From: a virus
Lineage: Duplodnaviria > Caudoviricetes
DNA length: 64,000 nt
Direction: 5' to 3' (one strand)
IMG/VR virus record: IMGVR_UViG_3300021399_000008
Span: 1-64,000 of that record
Part shown: positions 6,044-63,633 of the stretch, piece by piece
Layout of the letters: the number at the start of each line of letters is the position of its first letter
How positions within the stretch are numbered: position 1 is the stretch's first letter
Notes under the pieces: model-generated
Databases searched by the model: none
What the model saw: only the letters and a program-made list of their open reading frames with translations
Told to the model about the DNA's origin: nothing
Position numbers and translations under genes: made by a program

Positions 6044-6976
6044 GTGGCTATTCTTGATTTTCACAACGAGAACCATTTTCTCTCTAACTTCTATGAATGC
6101 ACAGTGAATTACAACGGGCTTACCTTCTCCAGTGCGGAGTCGGCTTTCCAGGCAATGAAATCTGAAAGCCCGTATATCCAGACAATGATGTCCGTATTCA
6201 GTCCTCTTGAGTCCAGGCGCTACGGAAGGAAGGTAAAGCTTCGCCGTGACTGGGAGGACGTGAAAGAACGCGTTATGTCCGAGATCGTGTATGCGAAGTT
6301 CATCCAGCATCCAGATCTCGCTGACAAACTACTCGCGACTGGTGACCAGGAACTCGTAGAGGGAAACCTCTTTGGTGACACATTCTGGGGCGTCGACAAG
6401 AGAAACGGTCGAGGCCAGAACAAACTAGGAAAAATCCTGATGAATGTCAGGAACGATATTAAACAATTACGTGAAAACGAAAGGAGAAACAAAATGGCTA
6501 CTATGAATCGGAAACTCGACAAGACCCCTACGAATATTATTCTGAAGGTTGAAGGATCTGCGAACACTCAGAACAAGAACGGAGCCTATATCTCCAAACT
6601 GGTACTCGGTGAGCACGAGAAGGAATTCATCGGCTCTGCTTCCGAGACCACGAACAACCGTATGGCCCTGGATGGGATTATCTCCGCTCTGGAAGCCCTG
6701 AATGACCGGGCTAAAGGTGCAACGATCGAGATTCACTCGAGCTGCACCTACATCTATGACTGCGCTACGAGAGGCACTATCGGTACCTACCTGAAGAACA
6801 ACTGGACTACTCCCTCTGGAGTAGAGGCCAAGAACCGTGATCTCTGGGAGAAGCTCCTCGAGGTCAAGAAGGCCAAGGGTGTGAAGGTTAAGTTCTCTCT
6901 GGATGAGAACAAAGACATGAAGAAGAAAGCCAGAGAAATGGTTCGTACTTTGAGCCCTGTAGTGGCTGAAATCTAA
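6044..6976 (+). CDS. NADAR (YbiA-like) domain fused to a degenerate RNase HI-like domain
   Basis: FLSNFY, SAESAFQAMK, KF.QH..L...LL.TG, DTFWG, GQNKLG..LM; C-terminal TTNNRM and NRDLWE; internal RBS and ATG at 6494. Confidence 0.9.
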   Translation: MAILDFHNENHFLSNFYECTVNYNGLTFSSAESAFQAMKSESPYIQTMMSVFSPLESRRYGRKVKLRRDWEDVKERVMSEIVYAKFIQHPDLADKLLATGDQELVEGNLFGDTFWGVDKRNGRGQNKLGKILMNVRNDIKQLRENERRNKMATMNRKLDKTPTNIILKVEGSANTQNKNGAYISKLVLGEHEKEFIGSASETTNNRMALDGIISALEALNDRAKGATIEIHSSCTYIYDCATRGTIGTYLKNNWTTPSGVEAKNRDLWEKLLEVKKAKGVKVKFSLDENKDMKKKAREMVRTLSPVVAEI

Positions 6977-9981: not shown

Positions 9982-10395
9982 ATGTTCAAGACCGAAATTA
10001 TTGGTAACCTCACTAAGGATCCTCAGACCCGTGAATTCACTGCTCCTAATGGTGACAAGCGCACCGTGTGCAACTTTGATGTTGCTGTGGACACTGGCTA
10101 TGGCGACAACAAGAAGACCCATTTCGTCCGTATCAGCGTCTGGGGTAAGTCTGGTGAAGCCTGCGCGAAGTACCTGGCAAAGGGCAAGAAGATCTACGCG
10201 AAGGGTATCGTGACCGCGAACGCCTACGTGAATAAGGATGGCCAGCCTGCCGGACAGCTCCAGCTGAATGCTGATGAAATCGAGTTCCTGAGCCCTGCTG
10301 GCGGTAACGGTGCTAGCGCTGCTCCCGCTCCTCAGGCGAACTACTCCCAGGCCGGATTCACTGAAGAGCCCTCTACTGACGACCTGCCCTTTTAA
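9982..10395 (+). CDS. ssb: single-stranded DNA-binding protein
   Basis: IIGNLTKDP, VCNFDVAV, WGKSGE.CAKYLAKG, DDLPF tail. Confidence 0.95.
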   Translation: MFKTEIIGNLTKDPQTREFTAPNGDKRTVCNFDVAVDTGYGDNKKTHFVRISVWGKSGEACAKYLAKGKKIYAKGIVTANAYVNKDGQPAGQLQLNADEIEFLSPAGGNGASAAPAPQANYSQAGFTEEPSTDDLPF

Positions 10396-10783: not shown

Positions 10784-11416
10784 ATGATTAAGGTAAACGT
10801 ACGTACCGACAAAGGCAATTCCGTTCCCTCTCAGCTGACCAACGAGAACCGGAAGATCGAAGACTTCCTCGCTTCCGTTGGTGTTCCTGTGACCTCTGCG
10901 ACTCAGATCTACGCGAACGGCCAGATCTGTGACGCCGACACTCTCCTGGCTGATATCGACGCAGAAGAAGTGACCCTGATGCTGTGTGAGAAGATGCAGC
11001 TTGGTGCGAAGATGCACGTCGCTGGTCATGCTCTGGCTCTGACTTCCGAGTACCTGGACATCATTAAGGATGCGGCTGCTCATAAGCCCGAAGCCCTGAT
11101 TGTCCGCGATCCTGAGACGAAGGAACCTGTGTTTAAGGTTGAAGTTGCCGAAGGCGACGAGTACGGTGATATCGGGAAGTACGGTGTCACGTTCTCGAAT
11201 AAGGCCGACAGCTACGGTAACGCCGTGGCTACAACTGTCCTGAATCTGGATATGTTCGACGATCCCTATGTTCAGGATATCCGTGAGAAGCTTGTCCAGG
11301 AGTATGGTCCTGTCCTCGCGAACCTGCAGAAGGTTGAGGAGCAGATCGAGAAGGCTCGTGGCGAACTCGAGGCTCAGGTTCAGGCTACCGAAGGTATGAT
11401 CGTGATCGCGCATTAA
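10784..11416 (+). CDS. ubiquitin-like (beta-grasp) domain fused to a C-terminal domain
   Basis: residues 1-74 show a beta-grasp pattern (IKVNV...IEDFL..VGV....IYANG......LADI....TLML..K..G); operon context with JAB and E1. Confidence 0.6.
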   Translation: MIKVNVRTDKGNSVPSQLTNENRKIEDFLASVGVPVTSATQIYANGQICDADTLLADIDAEEVTLMLCEKMQLGAKMHVAGHALALTSEYLDIIKDAAAHKPEALIVRDPETKEPVFKVEVAEGDEYGDIGKYGVTFSNKADSYGNAVATTVLNLDMFDDPYVQDIREKLVQEYGPVLANLQKVEEQIEKARGELEAQVQATEGMIVIAH

Positions 11417-11495
11417 AGCCAGCACTATCTCCGGGTCCGCGCTAAGACGGACCCGGAGAGATTTAATTTATTAAACGCAGAGGAGAGGTGAGAAC

Positions 11496-12959
11496 TTGAA
11501 TTACAGTAATAAATGGTCTACTCAGATCGTGAAATCCCTGACGAGTCAGGCAGTTAGAATTATGCACTCAGCTTTCGACGTAGACGGACCTGAAGGATTA
11601 ACGATAGATAATTCGCTCGCTTCTTGTCTGCGCTTAATCTCAACTATGATGCCGGGTGCGAACATAAAGCTTTACTTCCAGTTTTCCGACAAGTTCTCGG
11701 AGTTCGAAGATGTTCTCGGTTCTTCGAGTAAATACGGAGCAGTCGTTGTGAATCTTGCTACTAAACCAGATAGTCTCAACGACTTTATTAAGGAAGTGAA
11801 CTCGCATCATTATAAAGGCGAAGCTCAGCTCTGTTCATTCTTTAAATCGAAAGGAATCCAAAACCCGTATGTGTGCTCGAATAATAGTACTGTCCATTTC
11901 TTCTTTCAGCAGTTCACTGAGAAGGAGCTTTGGGCTCTGATCTCAACGATACCAGTCTGGCTGAAGAAGAATGCATACGGCTATCCTTGCGGATTCAAAG
12001 GCGAAGAGAAGCTCCTTGAGTTTTTCGGGATGTTCGACAAGGGCCAGATAGCCGAAGCCTACGAGTTCCTGAACACGACTTCGTTCTATGACGAGTTCAT
12101 CGAGAAGAAGCTGTATGGGAAACTGAAGTCGATCCGTCAGCTGAATATCACGAAAGAGATTGAACACTTTGCCGGGATCGAGCGGCAGAGTAAGGAACAG
12201 CTGCAGGTATACGAGCGGAAGATCCTCGAGGCGAAGGCGAATCTTTCAAATGCGAAGTTCACTCTTCTCGGTCTGAATCTGGCTATGGATAATCTCGAGA
12301 AGGAAGTTGATAAACTGAAGACCGAGCTGAACAATTTGCTCGCGAAGAATCCTACGCTCTCAGTTCTTGAACTTACGTCCGACACTATGACCTTTACCTA
12401 TACGACTACGTACAGGAACTGGGATCAGAAGCTGATTGAGGCAATGATCGATAACCCGAAGTCGATATGTTATCAGGATATCCCGATTACTGCTGCTTTC
12501 AGCATTATCGGCGAGAGCGACCACGAGACTGCGAAGGAAGTCCTGAAAGCGATCTTCGTAGATCAGGTCCTGAAGATCAGAACTGCCTGTGGCTTCTACT
12601 TCAGGATGAGTTCGACGAACCCTGCTGTTAAGCGTCTGGATGCCGATATTACAACCTCAGTGATCGGTGACAGTGCGATGAAGAACATGATCCTGAATCC
12701 GAATATCATGAGCTATGACTGCTTTGGAAGCTACAGTCTTCCGATTAGGACAGCCCTGCAGGATTCGGACATTATCCGAGCTATCGCTGTAGCTATGACT
12801 GCCGCAGCCTCGATTACTGTTGACGAAGGACCGACTGCCGGACAGATCTACCGTGCAATCTGGGATAACCGTCCCATTATGGAGAATCTGGAAGGTGACG
12901 TTCTGAATCTTGAACAGGCAATAGAGTATTTGAAGAGGGAGGGATACTATGTACCTTGA
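11496..12959 (+). CDS. coiled-coil protein with a putative prokaryotic E2-like C-terminal domain
   Basis: NPNIMSYDCFG resembles the xPH/N...C.G catalytic motif of bacterial E2s; lies between Ubl and JAB. Confidence 0.5.
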   Translation: MNYSNKWSTQIVKSLTSQAVRIMHSAFDVDGPEGLTIDNSLASCLRLISTMMPGANIKLYFQFSDKFSEFEDVLGSSSKYGAVVVNLATKPDSLNDFIKEVNSHHYKGEAQLCSFFKSKGIQNPYVCSNNSTVHFFFQQFTEKELWALISTIPVWLKKNAYGYPCGFKGEEKLLEFFGMFDKGQIAEAYEFLNTTSFYDEFIEKKLYGKLKSIRQLNITKEIEHFAGIERQSKEQLQVYERKILEAKANLSNAKFTLLGLNLAMDNLEKEVDKLKTELNNLLAKNPTLSVLELTSDTMTFTYTTTYRNWDQKLIEAMIDNPKSICYQDIPITAAFSIIGESDHETAKEVLKAIFVDQVLKIRTACGFYFRMSSTNPAVKRLDADITTSVIGDSAMKNMILNPNIMSYDCFGSYSLPIRTALQDSDIIRAIAVAMTAAASITVDEGPTAGQIYRAIWDNRPIMENLEGDVLNLEQAIEYLKREGYYVP

Positions 12960-13524
12960 TCTGGAATCTGTACCTGACTATGCCGAGAGTGAAGACCCGT
13001 TCACTCTTATTATACCCAGCTCCGTTGAGGACAAGATCTTCACGGCTACGAACTACGTCGAAAGTGAGATCGCCTGGTTTGGAGTCGTGAAAGAACTCCG
13101 GCCTCTTGAATTCTACCTCGAAGATATTCTGATCTTCCCTCAGACAGTGACTGGTGTAACCGTCGAGACTGACGAGGCTGAATTTGCTAAGTGGATGGCT
13201 AACCTCAGCGACGACGAGTACAGTAAGCTGAAGTTCCACTGCCACTCTCACGTGAAGATGTCCACAACTCCCAGCGCAACCGATCAGAAGTACTATAAGT
13301 CTCAGATCGAGAACATGGACAATGACGACTACAAGATCTTCATGATCGTGAACCAGTGGCTTCAGTATGATGCCGTCCTGGTAGATAAGAAACACAAGAT
13401 CTACTACCCTGACTGCAAGTATGAGATCCACATCGGATCTGACTCTACGATTGGCCAGATCTATAAGTATGTGAAAGAAGTTCCGACAGAAAAGGAAAAG
13501 GAGAAATTGAATGAACCTGCTTAA
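12949..13524 (+). CDS. JAB/MPN metallo-isopeptidase
   Basis: N-terminal Glu (EIAW) and HSH...PSATD JAMM motif. Confidence 0.9.
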   Translation: MYLDLESVPDYAESEDPFTLIIPSSVEDKIFTATNYVESEIAWFGVVKELRPLEFYLEDILIFPQTVTGVTVETDEAEFAKWMANLSDDEYSKLKFHCHSHVKMSTTPSATDQKYYKSQIENMDNDDYKIFMIVNQWLQYDAVLVDKKHKIYYPDCKYEIHIGSDSTIGQIYKYVKEVPTEKEKEKLNEPA

Positions 13525-14191
13525 GAGCTATAAGTTCTTCGATCCTACAGGCTTCAGTGATCGGATCCACATCATCGGGTGTGGGTCCGTAGGGTCTACT
13601 ATCGCAGAGCTTCTCGCCAGATATGGTTTCACGCAGTTCGTACTGTACGATTTCGATACCGTCAGCAGTCACAATATCGTGAACCAGATGTTCTTCAACG
13701 ATCAGATCGAAACTCCGAAGGTGGATGCTGTTGAGGCAGTTTTGAAGGCGATTAACCCTGATGTCCGTGTCCTGAAGATGCGGAAGGGCTGGACTGGCCA
13801 GAACCTCAGCGGATACGTCTTCCTATGTCTCGACAATATCGAACTCAGGAAAGAGATCTGTGAGGCTAACCTCTACAACGAGAATATTACTGGAGTTTTC
13901 GACGTCAGAACTGGCCTCACGAACGCTCAGGCATATTTCTCTACGTGGGATACCGAAGAGGCGAAATCGTGGCTGATTTCTACAATGAATTTCAGTAAAG
14001 AGGAAGCGAATCAATCGACTCCTCTGTCCGGCTGTAACGTCGCACAGTCGGTAGCTGCTACTCTCAGACTGATCTGTTCTCTTCAGGTAGCGAACTTCGT
14101 GAATTACCTGAGAAAAGAAGGTTCTGTCTTCCAGCTTGCGACTGTTGATACTGATTCCTTCAGCCTGAATACGATCCCGTTAAAAAACTGA
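13511..14191 (+). CDS. ThiF/E1-like adenylating enzyme
   Basis: IIGCGSVGS, DFDTVSSHNIVNQ, CLDN, DVRTG, Cys in PLSGC. Confidence 0.95.
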   Translation: MNLLKSYKFFDPTGFSDRIHIIGCGSVGSTIAELLARYGFTQFVLYDFDTVSSHNIVNQMFFNDQIETPKVDAVEAVLKAINPDVRVLKMRKGWTGQNLSGYVFLCLDNIELRKEICEANLYNENITGVFDVRTGLTNAQAYFSTWDTEEAKSWLISTMNFSKEEANQSTPLSGCNVAQSVAATLRLICSLQVANFVNYLRKEGSVFQLATVDTDSFSLNTIPLKN

Positions 14192-14398: not shown

Positions 14399-14809
14399 AT
14401 AAAAGTTTACGTAGTAATGGCTGGCGATTACTCCGAACGCCATATCGAAGGAATCTTCGATAGTGAGGAAAAGGCTAAACATTACGTAAAACTGTTCGAC
14501 TTAATGTGGATGTATAAAAATGCGCGTATAGAAGCCTATGAGCTGAACAGTAAAAACGAAGACGAATCTTGGTGTTGGTATGACTGGATTCGTTGTACGT
14601 ACAACGTGGACAATAATACTGTGACCACAGAAGGTGAATTTTACGAAGAAGATGAATGTGTCTACGGATTAAGCAACAATAAATACTTTGAATTCTCAGT
14701 CAGGTTTGATGAACAACTGGCCGACGAGTCGGTTCTCCTGAAGATTGCACAGGATCGCTGGGCAAGGTACAAGTACGAACATTCTGACGAGGAGGAGACT
14801 AATGTGTGA
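14399..14809 (+). CDS. hypothetical protein, apparent ATA start
   Basis: GGAGG at 14385 then ATA AAA GTT TAC GTA GTA ATG, giving (M)KVYVVMAGDYS; the track starts at 14417. Confidence 0.65.
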   Translation: MKVYVVMAGDYSERHIEGIFDSEEKAKHYVKLFDLMWMYKNARIEAYELNSKNEDESWCWYDWIRCTYNVDNNTVTTEGEFYEEDECVYGLSNNKYFEFSVRFDEQLADESVLLKIAQDRWARYKYEHSDEEETNV

Positions 14810-15062
14810 CTACATTATTGACTATGATGGGAACACATACAGGAGACTTACTGACTGGATTCAGCTGAAGGATGGGAAGTTCGAGCTGAATAACAAGACC
14901 TACAGTCTCGAAGATGACTTCGATAACCTCAACTATCCGATTTTCTACGACGATGATGAAGGTAAATTATGTTTCCTGTCAGCCGTCGAAAAGGATGAGT
15001 GGGTTCACCCGTTCCTGTTGGAACTGTCCGAATGCGTCGACTGGATTCGTGTCTACAGTTGA
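14802..15062 (+). CDS. hypothetical protein, probable paralog of 17188..17571
   Basis: GGAGG RBS; YRRLTDWI / YSL..F / PIF.DD.GK...L pattern shared with the 17188 ORF. Confidence 0.7.
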   Translation: MCDYIIDYDGNTYRRLTDWIQLKDGKFELNNKTYSLEDDFDNLNYPIFYDDDEGKLCFLSAVEKDEWVHPFLLELSECVDWIRVYS

Positions 15063-15095: not shown

Positions 15096-16235
15096 ATGTA
15101 TATTGTGATGAGAGCACATACGAAACATAACCCTGTATCTTATGAGAACCTGATCGCTGGTAAGTGCGGAACAGTTAAGTGGAAGAACACCAAGAACTTC
15201 ACGGTAACGAAGAAGGTTCCGACGAATTCAGTCAACTGCAACAAGAAGCTAATCGACAAAGGTGTATTGGCTCTTAGACAGATCACGAAACAGTTCGAGA
15301 GTGAAGGTCTCTGTCCTGATTCGATGTATAAACATTACCAGATTCCGAAGAAGACTGGCGGTATGCGGAACATCGACGAGCCGAATGATGAACTGAAGGG
15401 TTGGCAGAATGAAATCGTGCGAATCCTGAAGGAATACTTTGGTGTGATGCACCACACAAATGCGTACGGTTACGTAGAGAAGAGGTGTTGTATTGACGTA
15501 GCAGAGAAACACAGACTGGCTGGATCCAACTGGTTCCTGAAGATCGACATTTCAGACTTCTTCGGGAGCACTACTCTGGACCACCTGGTTAAACAGATGG
15601 GCCAGGTCTATCCGTTCGCTAACCTGATAGACTCGTGGCATTGGTATTATGAAGAGATATTCAGGAAAGCTTTGAAAATCTGCTTCCTGAATGGAGGACT
15701 GCCGCAGGGTAGTCCTGCTTCACCGCTCCTCACAAATCTGCTTATGATCCCTTTTGACTACGAGATCACGAAGAAACTGACAGCCAAAGGACTCATCTAT
15801 ACCAGATACTCTGATGATATGCAGATCTCTGGCAGACAGGAGTTCGACTGGCAGGAAGTCGTGAACATCGTACGGGAAACATTCAAGGAACTCGGTGCGC
15901 CTTATGTTATCAAAGATAAGAAGACGCATTACGGGAACATCAATGGCCGAAACTGGATGCTCGGTGTGAAGATCAACAAAGACAGAAACATTACTGTCGG
16001 CTGGGAAAATCACAAGACATTCAAGGCCAAGATGTATCGCTTTATCATGGACTACGATCACCTCAGCTATGAGGATAGAGCAAAGTTCATCGGTCTAGCG
16101 AACTATTACAAAGCTGTTGAGCCGGACTTCGTGAAGAAAACGTTTGAGCATTACAGGTTTGAGAAAGAAGAAACCAGACGAATCCTGATCGACTTTACTC
16201 AGCCGTTCAATACTCTGTTTAAAGTTGTCCGGTAA
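15096..16235 (+). CDS. retron-like reverse transcriptase
   Basis: IPKKTGGMRNI..P, AYGY...R, AEKH (region-X-like), KIDISDFF, LPQGSPASP, YTRYSDD, MLG in place of VTG; RBS favours ATG 15096. Confidence 0.9.
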   Translation: MYIVMRAHTKHNPVSYENLIAGKCGTVKWKNTKNFTVTKKVPTNSVNCNKKLIDKGVLALRQITKQFESEGLCPDSMYKHYQIPKKTGGMRNIDEPNDELKGWQNEIVRILKEYFGVMHHTNAYGYVEKRCCIDVAEKHRLAGSNWFLKIDISDFFGSTTLDHLVKQMGQVYPFANLIDSWHWYYEEIFRKALKICFLNGGLPQGSPASPLLTNLLMIPFDYEITKKLTAKGLIYTRYSDDMQISGRQEFDWQEVVNIVRETFKELGAPYVIKDKKTHYGNINGRNWMLGVKINKDRNITVGWENHKTFKAKMYRFIMDYDHLSYEDRAKFIGLANYYKAVEPDFVKKTFEHYRFEKEETRRILIDFTQPFNTLFKVVR

Positions 16236-16246
16236 AACAATAATTC

Positions 16247-16565
16247 TCTAAGTGTTATGTATATCCGCGTGAGAAACGGGGCTTCTGATGTTATTAGAAG
16301 TAAAGAATTAATCGAGTCTTACGACGTCGTCGCCGCGTAGGCGCCTTCAGATCGCAGGCCCGGAGGAACCGACGAGCAAAGCACGTCGGTACCTCCGAGG
16401 CCCGCGTTCCTAAGGCGCCACTCGGCGACGACGTCTATGACCGTTCGTCCTGGATCTCGAGCTGCAGAACCTGAAACGCAGCATCCTGCTGGTTTCAGGT
16501 TCTCGCAGCTCGAGATCCAGGACTCACTCTTCACAATTTGTATAATTCTTATAGATGCACTTAGA
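16247..16565 (+). ncRNA. retron msr/msd-like ncRNA downstream of the RT
   Basis: terminal inverted repeat TCTAAGTG/CACTTAGA, two small 5' hairpins, inner stem AAGAATTA/TAATTCTT, long hairpins at 16323-16435 and 16447-16523. Confidence 0.8.
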
Positions 16566-17187: not shown

Positions 17188-17571
17188 ATGGCTTACAGAG
17201 AATTTGAAACGTTGGACCACCACAAATTGTACAGGGTCAGCCGCTGGATCAAGATCCATTTCTCTGAAAAGGTTTCTGTCCGCAGCCCTCTCTGGGACTA
17301 CGCCACAGATGAAAACGGTTACTGTCCCTACAGCGACCACTTCAACCCTGCTAATGGCTGTTACGTTGATTACTTTGTTTTCAACGGAAGAAAGTATGCG
17401 CTCAGTCAGTTCCTTCGCCTGTCTCAGCCATGGGGTTTTCCTGTGATCTTTAAGGATGAACACGGAAAGATGGTGAGTCTTGCCGGGTATGACCTCGAGA
17501 ATTACTACAGACCGATCATGATCGAGGTTGATGATGTCGGGGAATCGGTCAGAGTGTATGTGGAAGACTAG
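17188..17571 (+). CDS. hypothetical protein (ends in TAG; may read through to a TGA)
   Basis: AAAGGAG RBS, 127 aa. Confidence 0.8.
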   Translation: MAYREFETLDHHKLYRVSRWIKIHFSEKVSVRSPLWDYATDENGYCPYSDHFNPANGCYVDYFVFNGRKYALSQFLRLSQPWGFPVIFKDEHGKMVSLAGYDLENYYRPIMIEVDDVGESVRVYVED

Positions 17572-17730: not shown

Positions 17731-20556
17731 ATGGGAAAATTAAAACCTGATCTCAGTTATCTTGAGAACCAGATTAAACTCGTGTCACTTAACACCTATG
17801 ACCTGTTTACAGACGAAGAATTCGCGATGTATATGCGGATTATAGAGTTTGCGAAACAGATTTCGAAGCTGAACAAGAAGACCGATATGGAAGCACGGGT
17901 TCTTCTGATCGAACAGAAGCGTGAACTGATCAGAGAATTCAATGATCTGGTTAAGCAGCACGATGGTACCCCACGAACTGTCAGACTCAGCTTTATCCTT
18001 GATTCCAGGCTGTACGATGGGCCACTTCCACAGGGTGTAACCTGGTGGACCCTTAAGTACAGCCGGAGAATAGCTGAGTTCTGCTCAGAAGAGTCTCAGA
18101 AGATGGGACTGAACACGAACGATGTTACGTTCGACAAGATCATATTCAAATGGAAGTCACCTCAGATCCTCAGACAGATTGTCGTCGATGGATTTACGAT
18201 GCCGATCCTGAACGATGACGGTACAGTGACTACGAAAATGTACCACGTAGTGAATGCCTCAGCTGGCCAGCTCAGAACAGATAAAGTTCAGTGTCTGTCT
18301 GACGATATCTGGGAAAAGATTAAAGGCCCGTTCCAGTGCGGTCTTACGTGGGAAAAGATTAACCAGAGGAAGCCGATTAATATCAGTAAAATTCTGGCCT
18401 ATACTTCACTGATGTCCTCAGCCACAAATGTCTGGGCTGATATCAGTATTGACGAGTGTATAGTTGTTCCTGACTTTAAAGGCGAAGTTACCGGAGTCGT
18501 CGACTTCATTGAGCGAGACTATACGATCACAAGAGGTGAGCGTACTGTCGAGATCAATCATATAGACGGCGCAGGTATCTACATTTCAGATAACTTATCA
18601 GACATTTCAAAAGGAATTCGCGTTAACAGGAACAAGATGGTGCGTGGTCCATATATTAAAGGACTCGTTTCTCCGTTCGAAGTTCTCAGATTCTGCAGGG
18701 AACACGGAGTAGAGCCTGTAATCGAAGACTGTTGGGGAAAGGTACACAATCTCATCGAAGAAGGGATTAAGGTTATCTTCTCTGAGTCTCAGTTCAAGAT
18801 GCATGCCTACTATGATTCCTGGGATGAGTATAAGAATGAGTTCAAGAAGAACGGATGCCAGCTGAGAGACACGAACTATGAAGCTGACTATATCAAGGAC
18901 TGTGAGATTAACTATCAGATGCTTCAGGCTCTGATTGAATTCACGGACGAAGAGATTCAGAAATTCACAGCGAAGACGCATCAGAAAATTGAAGGAATCG
19001 CGAAGAACAAGGAGTCAATGCTTCGGGTTCTGAAGGCTGACGAAGACTCTGAGATCAACTACAGGAAAGCTTTGGCTCTGTACAACGAACTCCTCAGAGA
19101 GGGTTATGCCCGTGAGACTCTGAAGAACACGAAGAAGCGGTGGACTCTGGACGCAAAGTCTGGAAAGATCGTCTGTCAAAATAAGAGACTGTTCGTGATT
19201 CCTGATCTCTACGCAGCATGTGAGTTCTGGTTCCTGCGTGATCCACATCCGAAAGGTTTACTTCAGAATGGGGAAGTAGGATGCCTTGTCTACAGGAACA
19301 GAGAAAAGGTTGACTGTCTCAGATCACCAAGCCTGTACTTCGAGCACGCTGTCAGAAGAGTTTCGAAGGATCCAAAGGTGTATGACTGGTTCCAAACAAA
19401 CGGAATATATACGAGCTGCCATGACCTGATCTCGCGTGTTCTTCAGTTCGACTGCGATGGTGACCAGCTCAACGTAGTCGGTGAGCCTGTGATTATCGAA
19501 GTCGCTGAAAGAACCAGAGATAAGTACAATGTTGTACCTCTGTTCTATGACGCGAACGCAGCTCCAGGTGAACTTGTCTCCAGAGAAACAATCTATGAAG
19601 GTATCCTCAGAGCTCATAACAACTCAGGTATCGGAGCGATCTCGAATAACCTCACGATCCTGTGGAATAAACCGAACCCTGACTTTATCGCCGCAGCTCT
19701 TCTGTGTTACTTCAATAACCAGATGATCGACGGTGCGAAGACTGGTGAGGTAAACAGTTATGAGTCCTATCCTGAACCCTGTAAGAGGATTAAGGCAGCG
19801 ACTGGCGGCGGCAGAGGAAAGATGCCATACTTCTTCCAGTTCTCGAAGAATGGCAGAAGAGACCTGAGCAATAAGATGACATCGAATAAGGTGAAGGTTA
19901 CGAAACCGAACAACTCTGTTATGAATCGTATCTGTAAGTGCTTTGAAGATATCGGAAGAATCAATCCGAACTTCGCAGGGATTCCTCCCTTCAACTGGCA
20001 GATGCTGATGGCTGGAAACGTGACTGAGTATAACGAGAAAGCTATCGAACGATTCTGCGAACTGGATTCAGGCTACGATTACAACACGATCCATAACCTG
20101 AAGAATATTCACGAGAGTACTTTCCTGAAAGAAAGTAACGTCGGTTTTGTGTATGAGACCGTCTCGCGTCTGCTCGACGAAGAATTTGGGTTAGAGAATA
20201 TCTTCCCATCGATCACGAAGTATCTCTTCGCTGGTTCGAACGAGCAGAAGTACAGCCACAAGAAAGCGTACTGGGCGATCTTCGGAGACATTGCTGTACG
20301 TAATCTTGAGAGAAACCTTCAGGACTATACAGTCTGTGAACACTGCGGTATGAAGATTCCTTCCTGGGTGAAGAAGCATACATGTAGTAAGAACATGACT
20401 GGATACCTGGAGTGTATTGACTGTGGAAAGATCGTGGAACGGATTAACTCGAAGCAGTGCCGCTGTGCTGACTGTCAGAAAGAATACAGACGGATCACTC
20501 AGAACAGACTCCACGCTGAGTACAACAAACAGAAGAGAAGAAAGGCGGCTGGATAA
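17731..20556 (+). CDS. single-subunit double-psi-barrel RNA polymerase (SPbeta YonO-like) with C-terminal Zn ribbons
   Basis: catalytic FDCDGD, conserved LRSP, ASAGQLR, R.PYIKG, SQFKM motifs. Confidence 0.9.
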   Translation: MGKLKPDLSYLENQIKLVSLNTYDLFTDEEFAMYMRIIEFAKQISKLNKKTDMEARVLLIEQKRELIREFNDLVKQHDGTPRTVRLSFILDSRLYDGPLPQGVTWWTLKYSRRIAEFCSEESQKMGLNTNDVTFDKIIFKWKSPQILRQIVVDGFTMPILNDDGTVTTKMYHVVNASAGQLRTDKVQCLSDDIWEKIKGPFQCGLTWEKINQRKPINISKILAYTSLMSSATNVWADISIDECIVVPDFKGEVTGVVDFIERDYTITRGERTVEINHIDGAGIYISDNLSDISKGIRVNRNKMVRGPYIKGLVSPFEVLRFCREHGVEPVIEDCWGKVHNLIEEGIKVIFSESQFKMHAYYDSWDEYKNEFKKNGCQLRDTNYEADYIKDCEINYQMLQALIEFTDEEIQKFTAKTHQKIEGIAKNKESMLRVLKADEDSEINYRKALALYNELLREGYARETLKNTKKRWTLDAKSGKIVCQNKRLFVIPDLYAACEFWFLRDPHPKGLLQNGEVGCLVYRNREKVDCLRSPSLYFEHAVRRVSKDPKVYDWFQTNGIYTSCHDLISRVLQFDCDGDQLNVVGEPVIIEVAERTRDKYNVVPLFYDANAAPGELVSRETIYEGILRAHNNSGIGAISNNLTILWNKPNPDFIAAALLCYFNNQMIDGAKTGEVNSYESYPEPCKRIKAATGGGRGKMPYFFQFSKNGRRDLSNKMTSNKVKVTKPNNSVMNRICKCFEDIGRINPNFAGIPPFNWQMLMAGNVTEYNEKAIERFCELDSGYDYNTIHNLKNIHESTFLKESNVGFVYETVSRLLDEEFGLENIFPSITKYLFAGSNEQKYSHKKAYWAIFGDIAVRNLERNLQDYTVCEHCGMKIPSWVKKHTCSKNMTGYLECIDCGKIVERINSKQCRCADCQKEYRRITQNRLHAEYNKQKRRKAAG

Positions 20557-21155
20557 TGTTCTACTACCTTGGAATTATAAAGGAAGAAGATGTTCGTAAG
20601 GGAAACTACGAAGCTTCATTTATCCTTTGTCAGAGTAAAGGAAAGAGTGAGAAACGTTCAGGCTGGCGTGTTATTAAGACAAACAGCGCATATGTTACGA
20701 TGCCGAAGGTTCTCGTGAACAACATGTACGGGAACGAAGCTATGATCGATTTCCTCTCGAAGTACAGGACAAGAGATCATATGCATAACGGTAAGTACAG
20801 GCACGAGAAAACACTGAAGTACTATCCGAAAGGGTGGCTCTGCTGGTTCGAGTGCAACAAGTACGGTGTTCCGTCAGGGAACGTTCTCTATATTAAGAAC
20901 GTTCCTGATAAATCTGTCAGTAAAAAGACTGACACAGGGTTTATTCATCTGAAGGCTGAGATAGGTAAGGAGCCTACTAAGACTGAGCTTCTTACCTTCA
21001 GCCTGTATAACAACAGGGTTGTTCCCAATGAGTTCTCACAGGTCTTTCGGCCTACGATAGCCGAGAACCGTGTGGAAGTCATGAAGGAATATAACAAACG
21101 TGGTAAACGAAAGACTGAACCGGAATTGAAAGGAAGGAAAGTATGGACAAAGTAA
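20556..21155 (+). CDS. hypothetical protein
   Basis: translationally coupled to the RNAP gene. Confidence 0.75.
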   Translation: MFYYLGIIKEEDVRKGNYEASFILCQSKGKSEKRSGWRVIKTNSAYVTMPKVLVNNMYGNEAMIDFLSKYRTRDHMHNGKYRHEKTLKYYPKGWLCWFECNKYGVPSGNVLYIKNVPDKSVSKKTDTGFIHLKAEIGKEPTKTELLTFSLYNNRVVPNEFSQVFRPTIAENRVEVMKEYNKRGKRKTEPELKGRKVWTK

Positions 21156-21862
21156 GTAAGAAGTGGTACGAGGGAACTGAAGAAGAAGCTGCAGAGTATA
21201 TCTGGGGAAAGCTTTCAAAGATTGATGTCAGCGGTCTGGTTGAGAAGAAACAGAATCTTTCTTATCTCAGCTGGGCAAAGGCTCTGCATGAGGTCTACAG
21301 TGCTTTCCCGAATATGCGCTTCAGGATTCTGACTGATCCGAACAATGGTGACGTTCCGTACTTCGATCTGAAGAATGGCCTTGAGGTCAGGACCGAAGTA
21401 ACGATTGGTCCGATCACTCGTGAGATGTCTCTGCCTGTAATGGACAACACGAACACGAGTCTGAGGCTTGAACCGTATTCGATTACGACTAAGTTTGGTG
21501 AGAAGACGATCCGTGCCGCTGATGCGAATGATATCAACAAGAGTAAGATGCGCTGTCTCGTAAAGAACCTTGCGCTCTTCGGTCTCGGTATCAACGTGTA
21601 TGCAGGTGAGGATCTTCCGATGGATTCGGCTGAGGATCGTGAAGCTAAGAAGGAGCTCGAGAATGAGCTGAAGTCAGTGAAGGCTCAGATTAAGGAGTTG
21701 GGTGTGAAGAACACGAAGGGTATGAGCGCCGACCAGAAGAGTGAATACTACAATTCTGTAATCGTCAGCGTGATCAACTCTATGGACTTTATATCCTGCA
21801 ACGACATCTCGAAGCTGAACAAGATCCTCGAGAACTCAAGAAGCTTTAAGAAGGCAGCTTAA
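21143..21862 (+). CDS. Sak3/DUF1071 single-strand annealing protein
   Basis: LSYLSWA, LPVMD..N, INK..MRCLVKNLALFGLG..VYAGEDLP. Confidence 0.9.
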   Translation: MDKVSKKWYEGTEEEAAEYIWGKLSKIDVSGLVEKKQNLSYLSWAKALHEVYSAFPNMRFRILTDPNNGDVPYFDLKNGLEVRTEVTIGPITREMSLPVMDNTNTSLRLEPYSITTKFGEKTIRAADANDINKSKMRCLVKNLALFGLGINVYAGEDLPMDSAEDREAKKELENELKSVKAQIKELGVKNTKGMSADQKSEYYNSVIVSVINSMDFISCNDISKLNKILENSRSFKKAA

Positions 21863-33547: not shown

Positions 33548-36035
33548 ATGAACGTAATCAAACGTGACGGCAGAGAAGTAGCTTTCGACGAACAAAAAAT
33601 AGTCGATGCGATTCTCTCCGCTATGCGTGAAACGGAAACAGGAACCGATGAGGCACTGGCCAGGTTTATCGCGAACAAGATCGCTATCTCGAATAAGGAT
33701 ATGACAGTCGAAGAGATTCAGGATCTCGTAGAGAATTACCTGATGTCAAGCGACAGGAAGGATGTCGCGAAACAGTACATCCTGTACAGAGCTGAGCGTA
33801 CACGGAAACGTCAGATGGGTTCTGATATTGTGCGTCAGGTATGGGAGAAGACGAATGCATCTAACGTTGTGAACTCGAATGCGAACGTAGACGAACATTC
33901 TTTTGGCGGTAGAAAGAACGAAGCTGCTTCTGCGATCCAGAAGATTATAGCTCTTGATTATAATATGAGTCCTGATATCTCAGCTGCCCATAAGGATGGC
34001 TGGATCTATGAACACGATCTGGACTTCTATAACTTAGGCGGTGCGAACTGCCTGTTCCTTGACTTCAAACACATATTCGAGAACGGGTTCTCTACCCGTA
34101 ACGGAGATGTGAGATCACCAAGTTCTTATTCTACTGCCTGTCAGCAGGTAGCTGTTGCTTTTCAGCTGCAGAGTCAGTGTCAGTTTGGCGGCGTAGCCAG
34201 TCTGCATATTGACTACGATCTGGCTCCGTATGTAGCCAAGTCGTTCAGAAAACATTACGAAGATGGCCTTAAGTGGATTGAACATATTAATCAGCCTGAA
34301 TTTGGAGAGCTGAAAGAGAAAGCTTCTGTCGGCAATCCTGATCCTGCTCATTTGTCAGCTTATGATTACGCAGTTGAGATGCTTGAGCGCGAAGGGAAAC
34401 AGGCAAGTGAAGCTCTCTACCATAACCTTAATACGTTGGAAAGTAGAGCAGGAAGTCAGGTAGATAAAGTTGCCTGACGTAGCGGCGACGCTATGGAAAA
34501 ATCAATCGGGCAAATACGGTAGAACTCTCACGCAGACAATACCGTGGTAATCGGATAGATTTCGTAAGGCTGTCCGACACCGTAACGCGTAGGTGGTGAA
34601 TAAATATAATCCACCCAAGAGTGTCCGACTTCCCTCGCGGAAGAAGATGTACGCTGAACCGTGCACGAATTTACGTGCAGTTATGGGTGTGAACCCCGGA
34701 AGTAGATGATAAAAAGCTTCTACGATAACATATTGACCTTTTACCTCTATTAACTTCGGCAGAGATATATCTCCTGAAGGAAGACTGGTAACAAGATGGC
34801 TGCTCGAAGCTTCCCTATCGGGTATAGGCAAGCACCATCTCACAAGTATCTTCCCGATCAGTATCTTTCAGCTGAAGAAAGGTGTTAACTCCGATCCCGG
34901 AGATCCTAACTACGATCTGAAACAGCTGGCTATTAAGTCCCTGTCCAGAAGAATTTATCCGAACTTCGTGAACTGCGACTATTCAGAAGCTCATGAAGAT
35001 TTGAATAACATCGATACTTTCTACGGTACTATGGGATGTCGGACGAGCATCGGTTTAGATGTTAATGGATTAGGATATCAAAGAGTAGGTCGTGGAAACA
35101 ATGTACCTATTACAATTATCCTTCCTAAGATCGGTATTGAATACGGTATTTGTACAGGAAAGAGACAGACTCCTGATCTCGAAGGATTCTGGAAGAAACT
35201 GGATGAGCTGCTTGCTCTGACAGAGAAAGCTTTCCTTGAACGCTGGGAAATCATGAAGAGTCAGAGTCCTAAAGCCGCAACATTTATGTATCAGAACGGA
35301 ACGATTGCCGATGCTGACAAATGTACCGACACAGTTGAGCCAGCTCTGATTCATAACACGTTTGCGTTTGGTTATATTGGTATCGCTGAGATGTGTGAAG
35401 CTCTCTTCGGTACGAACCATGCAAAGGACGCGAGAGCTCATGCTTTTGCTCTGAAAGTTGTAGCTCGGATTAACCAGTACGCTAAGGAATTCACTCAGAG
35501 AAACAAGCTGAATGGTTCCTGCTATGCCACTCCAGCTGAGAGTCTGTGCTACACAGCGATGACGAAGCTGAAGAGTCAGTATGGAATTATCCATAACGTA
35601 ACTGACAGAGACTGGCTCACGAACTCGCACCATGTTCCTGTGTGGGAGAAGGTTTCTATCTACGATAAGCTCAGGATTGAAGCTCCTTTCTGCAGATATC
35701 CTACTGGCGGCTGCATTACGTACATCGAATGCGAGTCGACTTTTATGAATAATACTCAGGCTATAGAAGATATTATTGACTATGCTTCGAACCTGGACAT
35801 TCCTTATCTTGCTTTTAATTTCCCGATTGACACCTGTCTGGATTGCGGATATCAGGGTGAGTTCGATAACGAATGTCCTGAATGCGGAGGAAAGAATATC
35901 CTTCAGCTGAGAAGAGTAACTGGATACCTGACTCAGGATTACAGGAACTTTAACCACGGAAAACAGGAAGAGGTTAAAGCCAGAGTAAAGCACTCTGCTT
36001 ATACTGACTTCGGAGGAAACAACTTTGGACGATAA
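33548..36035 (+). CDS. nrdD: anaerobic ribonucleoside-triphosphate reductase, join(33548..34461,34736..36035)
   Basis: ATP cone VIKRDGR; splicing restores ESRAGSQVPFTSINFG; MGCR, ATPAE, TNSHH, C-terminal CxxC pairs and RRVTGYL. Confidence 0.95.
34462..34735 (+). mobile_element. group I intron (274 nt, no homing endonuclease ORF)
   Basis: 5' exon ends in U with P1 GTCAGGT/GCCTGAC (U-G pair); terminal G; P7-like GCGTA/TACGC; removal restores the frame. Confidence 0.9.
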
Positions 36036-39312: not shown

Positions 39313-39388
39313 GCGGGAGTGGCGAAATTGGCATACGCGGCGTACTCTAAATACGCTAACTTTGAGGGTTCGAGTCCCTTCTCCCGTA
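39313..39388 (+). tRNA. amber suppressor tRNA (anticodon CTA) on a Leu-like body
   Basis: GCGGGAG/CTCCCGT acceptor, GCGTA-CTCTAAA-TACGC anticodon arm, TTCGAGT T-loop. Confidence 0.9.
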
Positions 39389-39419
39389 CTTACATAAAGT
39401 ATTGGGAAATTCGAAGCGA

Positions 39420-43012: not shown

Positions 43013-43318
43013 ATGGCTAAAGAGGAAAAGTACCTGCATATCTGTGAGGTCTGCGGGAAAGAAGAGTATCTGACTGAGAAGGAAGCATATGAGAAAGGCT
43101 GGGATTACCCACCATATATTGGAACGTATGGAGTTCTCTCGCCCAGAACCTGTCCGTGTTGCACAATCGAAGATACGGCCTGGTTTGATTATATGAAGCA
43201 CCATTCCTTTGCTCAGCTGTCAGAGAAGCACAAGGAAACAGTCAGAAGAATCCTGGGAGAACCGGATAATCTGATCTTCCTGAATGATAAGAAAGGAAAG
43301 AAGAAGAATGGCACGTAA
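43013..43318 (+). CDS. Zn-finger hypothetical protein (CEVCG...GWDYPP..CPCC)
   Basis: AAGGAG RBS. Confidence 0.75.
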   Translation: MAKEEKYLHICEVCGKEEYLTEKEAYEKGWDYPPYIGTYGVLSPRTCPCCTIEDTAWFDYMKHHSFAQLSEKHKETVRRILGEPDNLIFLNDKKGKKKNGT

Positions 43319-44360
43319 ACTAGCCAGTATAGAAAAAGTCTGGAAGATAGAACCTATCGAAGGAGCCGACAATATCGAGCTGGCCCACGTACTTGGATGG
43401 CAGTGTGTTGTAAACAAAGGCCAGTTCAAACCGATGGATCTCGGTGTCTACTTTGAGATTGATTCTTTCCTTCCGATTCGGCCTGAGTTTGAGTTCCTGA
43501 GATCTTCGAGCTACAGAAACTCTGATATCTTAGGTGAAGGATTTAAGCTGAAGACAATGCGGTTTAAAGGTCAGCTCTCGCAAGGATTACTTCTTCCTGT
43601 CAGCCTCTTCCCTCAGCTCACCGGATATAATGTCGGTAGAGGCGTTGCCGAAGAACTCGGAGTTAAGAAGTGGGAGATCGAAGAGAGAGCTACGACTGGC
43701 GGTAACGTAATCGGAGAACTTCCGCACGATGTACCTCATACAGATGAGACCAGGGTGCAGCAGATACCTGAACTGATCGAAGAGTTCAGAGGACTTGAGT
43801 ACTATATCTCAACGAAGATGGATGGCTCGTCGCATTCAGTCTCGATAGACGAAGACGGACTGCATGTGACTGGCCACAACTATGAATACAAAGACGACGG
43901 ATCTTCGAGCTTCTACGAGTTCATTAAGTCGAATGGATACCTGAAGAGGATTCAGGAGTACAAGGAGAGGCACAATCTCACAGTAGAGACTCTTACAATT
44001 CAGGGTGAGTTCTGTGCTCCGGGTATTCAGGGCAATCCTGTAAAGCTTACGAAGCCTGAGTGGTTCGTGTTTACTGTCAGAATCAACGGGAAACGTGTGT
44101 CTCTGTATGAGATGCAGAAAGTCTGCGAAGAAGCAGGTCTTTCTACTGTCCCAATTGAGGAAGTAGGAATGGATCTTCCGTCGAAATATCCGACAGTTGA
44201 AGCGGTATTGGAACGAGCTGAAGGTAAATATTCTACAGGAGCCCGTAAGGAAGGTATCGTAATCAGACCTACAGAACCTGTGTTCTCCAGGACAATCAGT
44301 ACAAGTCTTTCTATGAAGGCTGTGAGTAACACATACCTTCTGAAAAAGAAAGGCGATTAA
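43308..44360 (+). CDS. ATP-dependent RNA ligase (DRB0094/Rnl2-like family)
   Basis: N-terminal RKLAS..I.PI.GAD.IE, motif I KMDGSS, QGE, EGIV, K.VSN.YL. Confidence 0.9.
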   Translation: MARKLASIEKVWKIEPIEGADNIELAHVLGWQCVVNKGQFKPMDLGVYFEIDSFLPIRPEFEFLRSSSYRNSDILGEGFKLKTMRFKGQLSQGLLLPVSLFPQLTGYNVGRGVAEELGVKKWEIEERATTGGNVIGELPHDVPHTDETRVQQIPELIEEFRGLEYYISTKMDGSSHSVSIDEDGLHVTGHNYEYKDDGSSSFYEFIKSNGYLKRIQEYKERHNLTVETLTIQGEFCAPGIQGNPVKLTKPEWFVFTVRINGKRVSLYEMQKVCEEAGLSTVPIEEVGMDLPSKYPTVEAVLERAEGKYSTGARKEGIVIRPTEPVFSRTISTSLSMKAVSNTYLLKKKGD

Positions 44361-44406
44361 AGTCAACAGAGTACCCGAAGGAGTAACTTCGGGTACTTTT
44401 ACTTAT

Positions 44407-44480
44407 GCTATCGTAACTCAGCAGGTTAGAGTGTCGGCCTTATAAGCCGCTGGTCGTGGGTTCGAATCCCACCGATAGTA
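44407..44480 (+). tRNA. tRNA-Ile(TAT)
   Basis: cloverleaf with anticodon loop CTTATAA. Confidence 0.9.
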
Positions 44481-44518
44481 CGAAAAAATAAAAACAGATA
44501 GTACGAAAAAATAAAAAC
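44474..44518. repeat. 22-bp tandem duplication of the tRNA 3' end and trailer
   Basis: GATAGTACGAAAAAATAAAAAC at 44474 and 44497. Confidence 0.85.
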
Positions 44519-62361: not shown

Positions 62362-63633
62362 ATGAGTATAGATATAGAAAGTATTAAATAGATCGTACAT
62401 GAAACTCTGAAAGAATCGCTGGCTATGTACCTTGAAAACTCAATGTTTCCAGGTTTCCTCAGACCAGAGAAAGAAGAGGAAACCATGGGTGATTTCAGAT
62501 CATTCGTAAATATAGGAACAAGAGAGAAGCCTGTGATGAAGAGGTTAGCCGCGAAGAGCCAGCAGGAACTGAACGACAGGATCGTAAAGGCTTACGTAGA
62601 TTCAGGAAGAATATGGGAGTTTTTGGAGTTAAAATCGGACTCTGAGAATAAACCCAGGGAAACATTCGGGCAGTATGTTGAACGCTGGATTTCGCTCTAT
62701 AAAGTCAATAAAATACGTGGAAACACACTGAAGGATTATAAGACAATACTGACAGGATATCTTATACCGGAGTTCGGGAACAGAGAGTTCGCCTCTATAA
62801 CGACAGATGACTTCCAGAAGTTCCTGAATAAGAACAAACATTTGTCGATGAAGTACCTGACGAACATAAAGATTCTGTTTGGATCTATAGCTAAGGATGC
62901 TGTTGAGGACGGAGTTATAGATAAAGATCCTACTGCGAGCAGGAAACTGTTTATACCTTCGACGAAGAAGAAGGAACGTAAACCTTTAAAGAAGGAAGAG
63001 TATCTGGAAATTCTCGAAGAAGTTAAGAAGCTGAAAGGAAGATTGTATCTTTTGATTGTTCTGCTTATGTTAAGTGGGCTGAGAAGAGGAGAAGTCCTGG
63101 GGCTGAAATGGGAAGACTTCTGCTGGGATGAAGGATACTTCGTAGTTCAAAGGAACGTGACCTTCTCGAAAGGAATATCTGAAGTAGGCGAGACTAAGAC
63201 TGAGTCTGGAAAGAGGAAGGTTCCTATATTAAAAGAACTCAGAACTTTTCTTGAGCCTTATAAGAAGGAATCTGGTTTTATTATCGAAGCTAAAGGAAGA
63301 GATCAGCAGCCAATCTGCAAGTCGACCTTCGACAGAGACTGGTACCAGCTGAATAAACTGATTAACCTGCACGGAGCTACACCTCATATCTTCAGGCACA
63401 CATTCCTGACATTACTGGCTGCGTCTGGGGTAGACATTAAGACTCTGCAGACGATAGCCGGACACAGTAATGCTGAGGTAACAATGAGAGTGTACGTACA
63501 TCCTGTTGACTCAAATATAGTAAAGGCAGGAGCAATGTTCAGTAAGTCAGTCTTTGATAATGTTGACTGGACTAAGTACGAAGAGATTACGGAGAAGTCT
63601 GAGATCGAAGAAGAAGTAGATAACGTAAGTTAA
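62362..63633 (+). CDS. int: tyrosine integrase (N-terminal extension contains TAG at 62389; alternative start 62485)
   Basis: GLRRGE, KT..G.R, HIFRHT, AGH, Y; GGAGG RBS at 62352. Confidence 0.95.

Follow-up and report, generated by a model that had tools for sequence, protein, structure and literature searches.

In a retron, a reverse transcriptase makes short hairpin DNA from a structured RNA of its own. Characterised retrons are bacterial toxin-antitoxin defences. Retron priming follows a geometry in which the branching G stands after the a2 arm (PMC7736814), and the text of the retron classification of Mestre et al. (2020) names no set of Ubl, E2, JAB and E1 genes as a partner (PMC7736814). 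Known retrons employ their msDNA for sensing, that of Ec86 detecting Dcm methylation (10.1101/2023.08.16.553469). UG27, in turn, makes cDNA hairpins of 50-100 nt, in a report that carries no mention of ubiquitin (Li et al., 2026; 10.64898/2026.09.22.753630), and the descriptions of the Bil and Bub conjugation systems mention no reverse transcriptase (RT) (PMC11601603, PMC11601596). A literature search that covered subscription journals thinly found no publication pairing a retron with Ubl, JAB and E1 genes. The window analysed here comprises the first 64 kb of a complete viral record of 116,328 bp with direct terminal repeats and, on the reading that we favour with a probability of about one half, it encodes a phage-borne retron that forms one functional block with a Ubl conjugation set.

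Genomic setting

Relatives of the window RT sit on gut and rumen viral contigs and also in MAGs, mostly of Clostridia, so that the host is probably a Bacillota anaerobe. Among the cultured phages of INPHARED, the RT family has no member bar one unannotated faecal contig. The RT and the Ubl set lie in the replication and transcription arm of the genome, among genes for an SSB (9982-10395), a Sak annealase (21143-21862), a primase-helicase, a DNA polymerase and, downstream of the RT and its RNA, a single-subunit RNA polymerase of 941 aa of the RdRP-like (PF05183) class (17731-20556), which we take to be YonO-like. The site of the block is fixed and is not a variable defence hotspot. The initial annotation had assigned the locus to a lytic module. 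Its place in the replication and transcription arm agrees with this, but a tyrosine integrase is encoded at 62425-63633, so that the lytic label is not established; two relatives are classed as proviruses, and the phage may be temperate.

Other features of the window include an NADAR-RNase H fusion protein (6044-6976); a tRNA with a CTA anticodon (39313-39389), called as Pyl by ARAGORN and possibly an amber suppressor; an anaerobic ribonucleotide reductase NrdD (33548-36035) encoded in two ORFs with a 490-nt gap that may represent an intron; and an RNA ligase gene adjoining tRNA-Ile(TAT) (43284-44481), possibly a tRNA repair module.

The reverse transcriptase

The RT open reading frame extends from 15075 or 15096 to 16235 on the + strand, and the 379-aa length of close homologues makes 15096 the likely start. 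The protein carries a YSDD motif and an N-terminal extension of about 75 aa that is specific to its family, and it matches Pfam RVT_1 with an E value of 5e-25. Its top PADLOC profile is RT_II-A (175 bits), the best 25 PADLOC matches are all retron models, and the solved structures nearest to it are those of the Ec83 and Ec78 RTs, while the NCBIfam St85 RT model scores 196 bits, under its cut-off of 235. A protein search returned 965 matches, the best 120 of which are mostly of about 378 aa and share 36-49% identity with the window RT. The same PADLOC and NCBIfam profiles do not place the RT among the DGR type. DGR was also considered for the locus as a whole and rejected, a template repeat with a matching variable repeat being absent and the msd having no second copy in the genome.

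The motifs previously read in this frame (DVAEKH, LPQGSPASP, YSDD and WMLGV) are present as described. When aligned, region X reads DVAEKH in the window and DAVKxH family-wide, against the retron standard NAxxH, and region Y reads MLGV in the window and NLGV in the family, against VTG; the His of region X and the Gly of region Y are invariant across the family. The substitution of MLG for VTG, singled out by the initial annotation, is hence a family trait (NLG or MLG) and not a peculiarity of the window RT. A quick tree, with group II intron RTs as the root and the branching order among retrons poorly settled, groups the RT with retrons and away from the group II intron RTs, and unites 25 diverse family members, including the window RT, in one clade (SH-aLRT 97) apart from St85-type references. 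Judged by profiles, structures and tree, the RT can be assigned to the retron class, its clade falls outside the named retron types sampled, and the retron belongs to none of the 13 types named by Mestre et al. (2020). Neither PADLOC nor NCBIfam profiles gave a retron effector match among the neighbours of the RT, which include none of the Mestre 2020 effector families. In one contig (L169:1758-2985), a near-identical RT turns unrelated after about residue 230 and is accompanied by no ncRNA, as might be expected of a recombinant or a chimeric contig.

The ncRNA element and its family

Directly after the RT stop codon, the sequence between 16230 and 16600 folds with an energy of -195.9 kcal/mol, against -107 +/- 5.7 kcal/mol for shuffled sequences (z -15.5). 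The fold delimits an element with msr-msd anatomy on the + strand (16247-16565) and contains every part that had been described in it from inspection: two small hairpins, an inner stem (16303-16310 with 16543-16550) and two long hairpins, one of 113 nt with several mismatches (hairpin A, 16323-16435) and one of 77 nt with perfect arms of 19 bp (hairpin B, 16447-16523). Of the small hairpins, the first (16265-16280) is variable in the family alignment and weak in the window copy, whereas the second (16281-16301), with a loop of 3 nt, is the best conserved part of the element and may be the stem recognised by the RT. Two mismatches of hairpin A appear as perfect pairs in two relatives (L176 and L177), and two adjacent base pairs of hairpin B are changed on both arms between near-identical phages, although such changes can be produced by template switching and are therefore weak evidence. 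Rfam holds no family that the element matches at gathering score, yielding only sub-threshold matches to generic miRNA hairpins.

The closing stem is formed by a 5' arm (a2, 16247-16258) and a 3' arm (a1, 16555-16565) that covary across the units of the family. The initial annotation had paired 16247-16263 with 16550-16565; a closing stem does exist there, but family comparison ends it at an unpaired G16259 opposite G16554, and the additional TATA pairs are positioned inside this G:G closure. When the best stem was sought with no base required, G opposite G was found to close it in 77 of 99 distinct units, and the arms change together. This combination of G:G closure and covarying arms reproduces the retron priming geometry, predicting priming at G16259, the position of the presumed branching 2'-OH, and an msDNA reaching at most some 250 nt. 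By analogy with retrons, that msDNA would correspond to the - strand of 16302-16553; folded as DNA, it reaches -105.7 kcal/mol (z -18.9). In a pattern search, the unit 16259-16554 was the top scorer of the whole genome, and similar units were found beside homologues.

A covariance model was built from the 5' part of such units. Its 163 matches at E values of 1 or less, a count that includes the 24 seeds, come from 100 sources and all share the strand of the RT; 60 other RT loci searched with it yielded nothing convincing. For hairpin 2, the unfitted seed alignment shows 86% pairing and two-sided changes at 7 of 9 pairs; in the alignment fitted to the model, 95.7% of its cells are paired and 8 of 9 pairs have changed on both sides. 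A conserved structured element therefore accompanies the homologues, both as model matches beside them and as the G:G closure, and the proposal of a retron-like RT that has a dedicated msr-msd RNA downstream, from which an msDNA with two hairpins is predicted, draws support from anatomy and covariation alike. On these features the element can be classed as a retron msr-msd RNA, and msDNA is very probably made from it.

Genomes of the family carry one to five different units, located between E1 and RT, after RT, in tandem or tens of kb away. The 116-kb genome studied here has one copy, a second, weak match (E 0.04) lying inside the RNA polymerase gene, and the search of that genome revealed no convincing extra copies. 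Across the family, msds range from 70 to 290 nt; about a quarter fold strongly, several of them as two long hairpins, while 70 of 94 are long and fold weakly, which means that duplex hairpins are not universal. The reversed gene order and double hairpin stressed by the initial annotation are therefore true of the window and ordinary within the family. One group of related phages combines a nearly invariant msr and nearly invariant arms with an msd that varies blockwise. Units of one locus show no base pairing with each other and are neither similar nor complementary. Evidence that selection on folding acts on the cDNA and not on the RNA is marginal (Wilcoxon p 0.024 under DNA and 0.29 under RNA parameters). 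In two upstream units (L005:5746-5764 and L012:5978-5995), the likely ribosome-binding site for the RT shares sequence with the a1 arm, so that stem formation could control RT translation.

The Ubl gene set and its linkage to the RT

The initial annotation had recognised no effector for this RT. A block of Ubl, E2-like, JAB and E1 genes (10784-14191, + strand), ending 0.9 kb upstream of the RT behind two small ORFs, nevertheless travels with the RT clade and, going by gene content, stands where other retrons have a toxin. Its first gene (10784-11416) encodes a Ubl domain (residues 1-74) fused to a domain of about 130 aa. In the structure model (pLDDT 88.5), the Ubl domain adopts a beta-grasp fold, with matches of Z up to 9.2 and an rmsd of 2.0 over 70 residues. 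The two domains are fused in some relatives and encoded by separate genes in many, and Ubl proteins of the family mostly end in KxDNA or KxDGA, or are fused N-terminally to the 130-aa domain. A terminator-like stem follows at 11428-11459; a scan for promoters and terminators gave nothing above chance.

The second gene (11496-12959) encodes a 487-aa protein with an alpha/beta domain, a coiled coil and a C-terminal domain. Its Cys409 is invariant in the alignment, within a PNPHxxxxxCxG consensus that resembles an E2 motif, and on this motif alone the protein is a putative E2; Foldseek, VIA and PDB profile searches gave no E2 match, whole-protein fold searches being dominated by the coiled coil. 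The third product (12949-13524) is a JAB/JAMM peptidase with a weak Prok-JAB match and a full JAMM motif (E40, H99, H101, S109 and D112 invariant), and the fourth (13511-14191) is an E1-like enzyme of the ThiF family (Pfam ThiF, E 1e-24). The two small ORFs between E1 and RT (14417-15062, + strand; 130 and 86 aa) are not conserved with the RT and occupy an interval that in many relatives holds another ncRNA unit. The one that precedes the RT (14802-15062) is homologous to a small ORF after the ncRNA (17188-17571). The interval also differs among near-identical phages, and in one relative (L174) the E1 is extended to 291 aa.

Among the 87 relatives with at least 4.5 kb of upstream sequence, E1 is present in all 87, JAB and the 487-aa protein in 86 each, and Ubl in 83. 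Only some 19 of 99 relatives have, within 6 kb, the RNA polymerase that flanks the locus here, which makes the Ubl link tighter than general synteny. The relatives nonetheless belong to one broad phage lineage with many near-identical loci, so that the linkage counts are not independent and may partly reflect inherited gene order. In this genome, the two ORFs between E1 and RT and the terminator-like stem at 11428-11459 also speak against a single block.

Exchange with UG27 systems

The reverse search, starting from 80 JAB loci, recovered the family RT in 72 and a locus cut short in two; in the remaining six, and this is new here, a UG27 system occupies the slot of the retron beside the Ubl set. 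Five of the six are near-identical (L327 group) and the sixth is L342. All six have, closely behind the Ubl set, a UG27 RT (558 and 445 bits), homologous versions of the two accessory genes and long hairpins in arrays; these are complete systems (L327:11893-15910; L342:10338-14056) in place of the retron. Their E1 proteins nest in a well-supported clade with retron-linked E1s, which fits replacement, once or twice, in either direction; the swap is represented by two phage groups and may have been a single event. That two unrelated RT machines with a similar product occupy one slot suggests, on this small sample, that the DNA hairpin is what matters. The window RT itself is not UG27, by its sequence, and a tblastn search of the DNA neighbouring its close relatives detected none of the L327 UG27 genes. 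L327 itself carries about seven small ORFs of about 95-105 aa between E1 and its UG27 RT (L327:9525-11879), and a K(R/K)NN(Y/F)(Y/W) motif closes six of them.

Proposed function and alternative explanations

In the mechanism that we consider most likely, the msDNA would act as a bait or sensor coupled to Ubl conjugation, its synthesis and its coupling both being predictions. As a strongly indicated first step, the RT would bind msr hairpin 2, prime on the 2'-OH of G16259 and reverse transcribe from about 16553 to about 16302, so that a branched msDNA carrying two long duplex hairpins results. The RNase H domain of the fusion protein encoded at 6044-6976 could process the retron RNA:DNA hybrid and trim the template. 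Short duplex DNA would then be the useful product, a bait for enzymes, encoded by the host or a competing element, that bind or modify DNA. In the least certain step, the state of the msDNA might control, or work with, the Ubl, E2-like, JAB and E1 proteins, which might conjugate the Ubl domain to a target protein for counter-defence or competitor exclusion. We infer a role in the interest of the phage rather than in lysogen defence. Functional coupling of the retron to the Ubl set is slightly favoured; a more specific and doubtful version holds that hairpins from either retron or UG27 bait host DNA-targeting enzymes and direct the phage Ubl cascade to tag and disable them.

An alternative, closest to the earlier reading of a locus with no effector, is a stand-alone decoy, in which multicopy duplex DNA titrates restriction-modification or DNA-binding defences of the host and the Ubl genes are mere neighbours. 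Several observations fit it. GCWGC occurs 112 times in family msds against 44 in shuffles, and in 59 of 73 msds; CTGAAG, GGCGCC and GGATAC are likewise enriched. In strongly folded msds, 8 of 10 CTGAAG sites are fully paired, against a baseline of 0.19, and GGCGCC and CCWGG are paired in the window msd and avoided in the window genome. Ten msd-derived words occur 24 times in UG27 hairpin regions, against 6 for GC-matched words, although the shared words are also frequent in these phage genomes (GCAGC ranks 2 of 80) and a hairpin contributes each site twice to such counts. The several different units per genome would suit a variable decoy set, the exchange with UG27 also fits, and the enriched words may serve as binding sites, by analogy with the Dcm site in Ec86 msDNA. 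The enrichment against shuffles is real, yet a restriction-site decoy did not withstand the controls. Words in the msDNA duplex show no extra avoidance in their own genome relative to matched words (p 0.46-0.62), across 23 genomes, avoidance of msd words is slightly lower in the genome they come from, and REBASE 6-mers are in excess to the same degree in msds (1.22-fold) and in ordinary genome DNA (1.18-fold), with no excess in the window msd. Furthermore, the enriched words are unpaired in weakly folded msds, and a decoy leaves the tight link with the Ubl set unexplained. We retain it as a possible, if doubtful, rival.

A canonical defence retron on a temperate phage would have the RT and msDNA restrain a toxin in the lysogen and release it upon attack by a rival, with the 487-aa protein and the fusion partner of Ubl as candidate toxins. 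Characterised retrons work by toxin restraint, prophages carry defence systems, and an integrase is encoded in this genome. Bil, moreover, uses Ubl, E2, JAB and E1 against phage (PMC11601603). The block nonetheless lies at a fixed site among replication and transcription genes, no known toxin domain was found in it, and an unrelated RT system can take the place of the RT module, which would not be expected of a dedicated antitoxin; we consider this explanation unlikely. It is very improbable that the element escapes reverse transcription and works as RNA or DNA alone, as a terminator, an origin, or a site of processing or protein binding. Intergenic phage DNA often contains long inverted repeats, and changes on both arms can arise by template switching rather than selection, but this would not account for the G:G closure, the covarying arms, the msr hairpins and the strict strand and clade specificity. 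A cDNA serving as donor for recombineering with the nearby Sak and SSB, or for DGR-like diversification, is the least probable and is largely refuted for targets in the phage genome, since the msd has no similar sequence elsewhere in the window genome or in the examined parts of three relatives, units within a locus are unrelated and the RT is not of the DGR type.

Comparison with known systems

A phage-restricted RT clade with a Ubl partner and several template RNAs would constitute a new retron type and, if the proposed function holds, possibly the first retron used by a phage against its host. Were hairpin-guided tagging to prove true, the locus would represent a counter-defence retron and a nucleic-acid-guided bacterial ubiquitination pathway, and would explain what UG27 products do. 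Candidates for retron-based editing in Clostridia also include RTs able to use many templates of 70-290 nt.

By score, the nearest group is that of the St85, Ec83 and Ec78 retrons (types I-A and II-A; PMC7736814), with which the locus shares RT profile and solved-structure matches, an a1/a2 stem whose 5' arm is immediately followed by a G, msr hairpins ahead of a hairpin template, and linked accessory genes. In contrast to these retrons, the window RT lies in a separate clade at 25-29% identity and under the St85 cut-off, and its family has (A/V)xxH and LG(V/L) for NAxxH and VTG, the N-terminal extension, one to five units placed up- or downstream with msds of widely varying length, a phage genome as carrier and a Ubl set as partner. 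The retron-type RTs of Staphylococcus jumbo phages are similarly found in a phage genome rather than a defence island, but share only 22-25% identity, fall outside the clade and do not match the RNA model. On the side of the partner genes, the order Ubl, E2, JAB and E1 matches that of Bil operons (BilABCD; PMC11601603), with the E2 of the window being putative; unlike Bil and Bub, the set is phage-encoded, has an E2 candidate of 487 aa and includes Ubl proteins with the KxDNA or KxDGA ends, or the N-terminal fusion, described above. Finally, UG27 differs in its unrelated RT class, its need for two accessory proteins and its RNA fold, with no branching-G architecture reported (10.64898/2026.09.22.753630), yet it too is a phage-borne RT with variable ncRNA units and diverse short cDNA hairpins, as predicted for the retron family, and six loci have it in the retron's position next to the Ubl set. 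This exchange connects two unexplained phage RT systems and offers a route to testing the role of their DNA hairpins.
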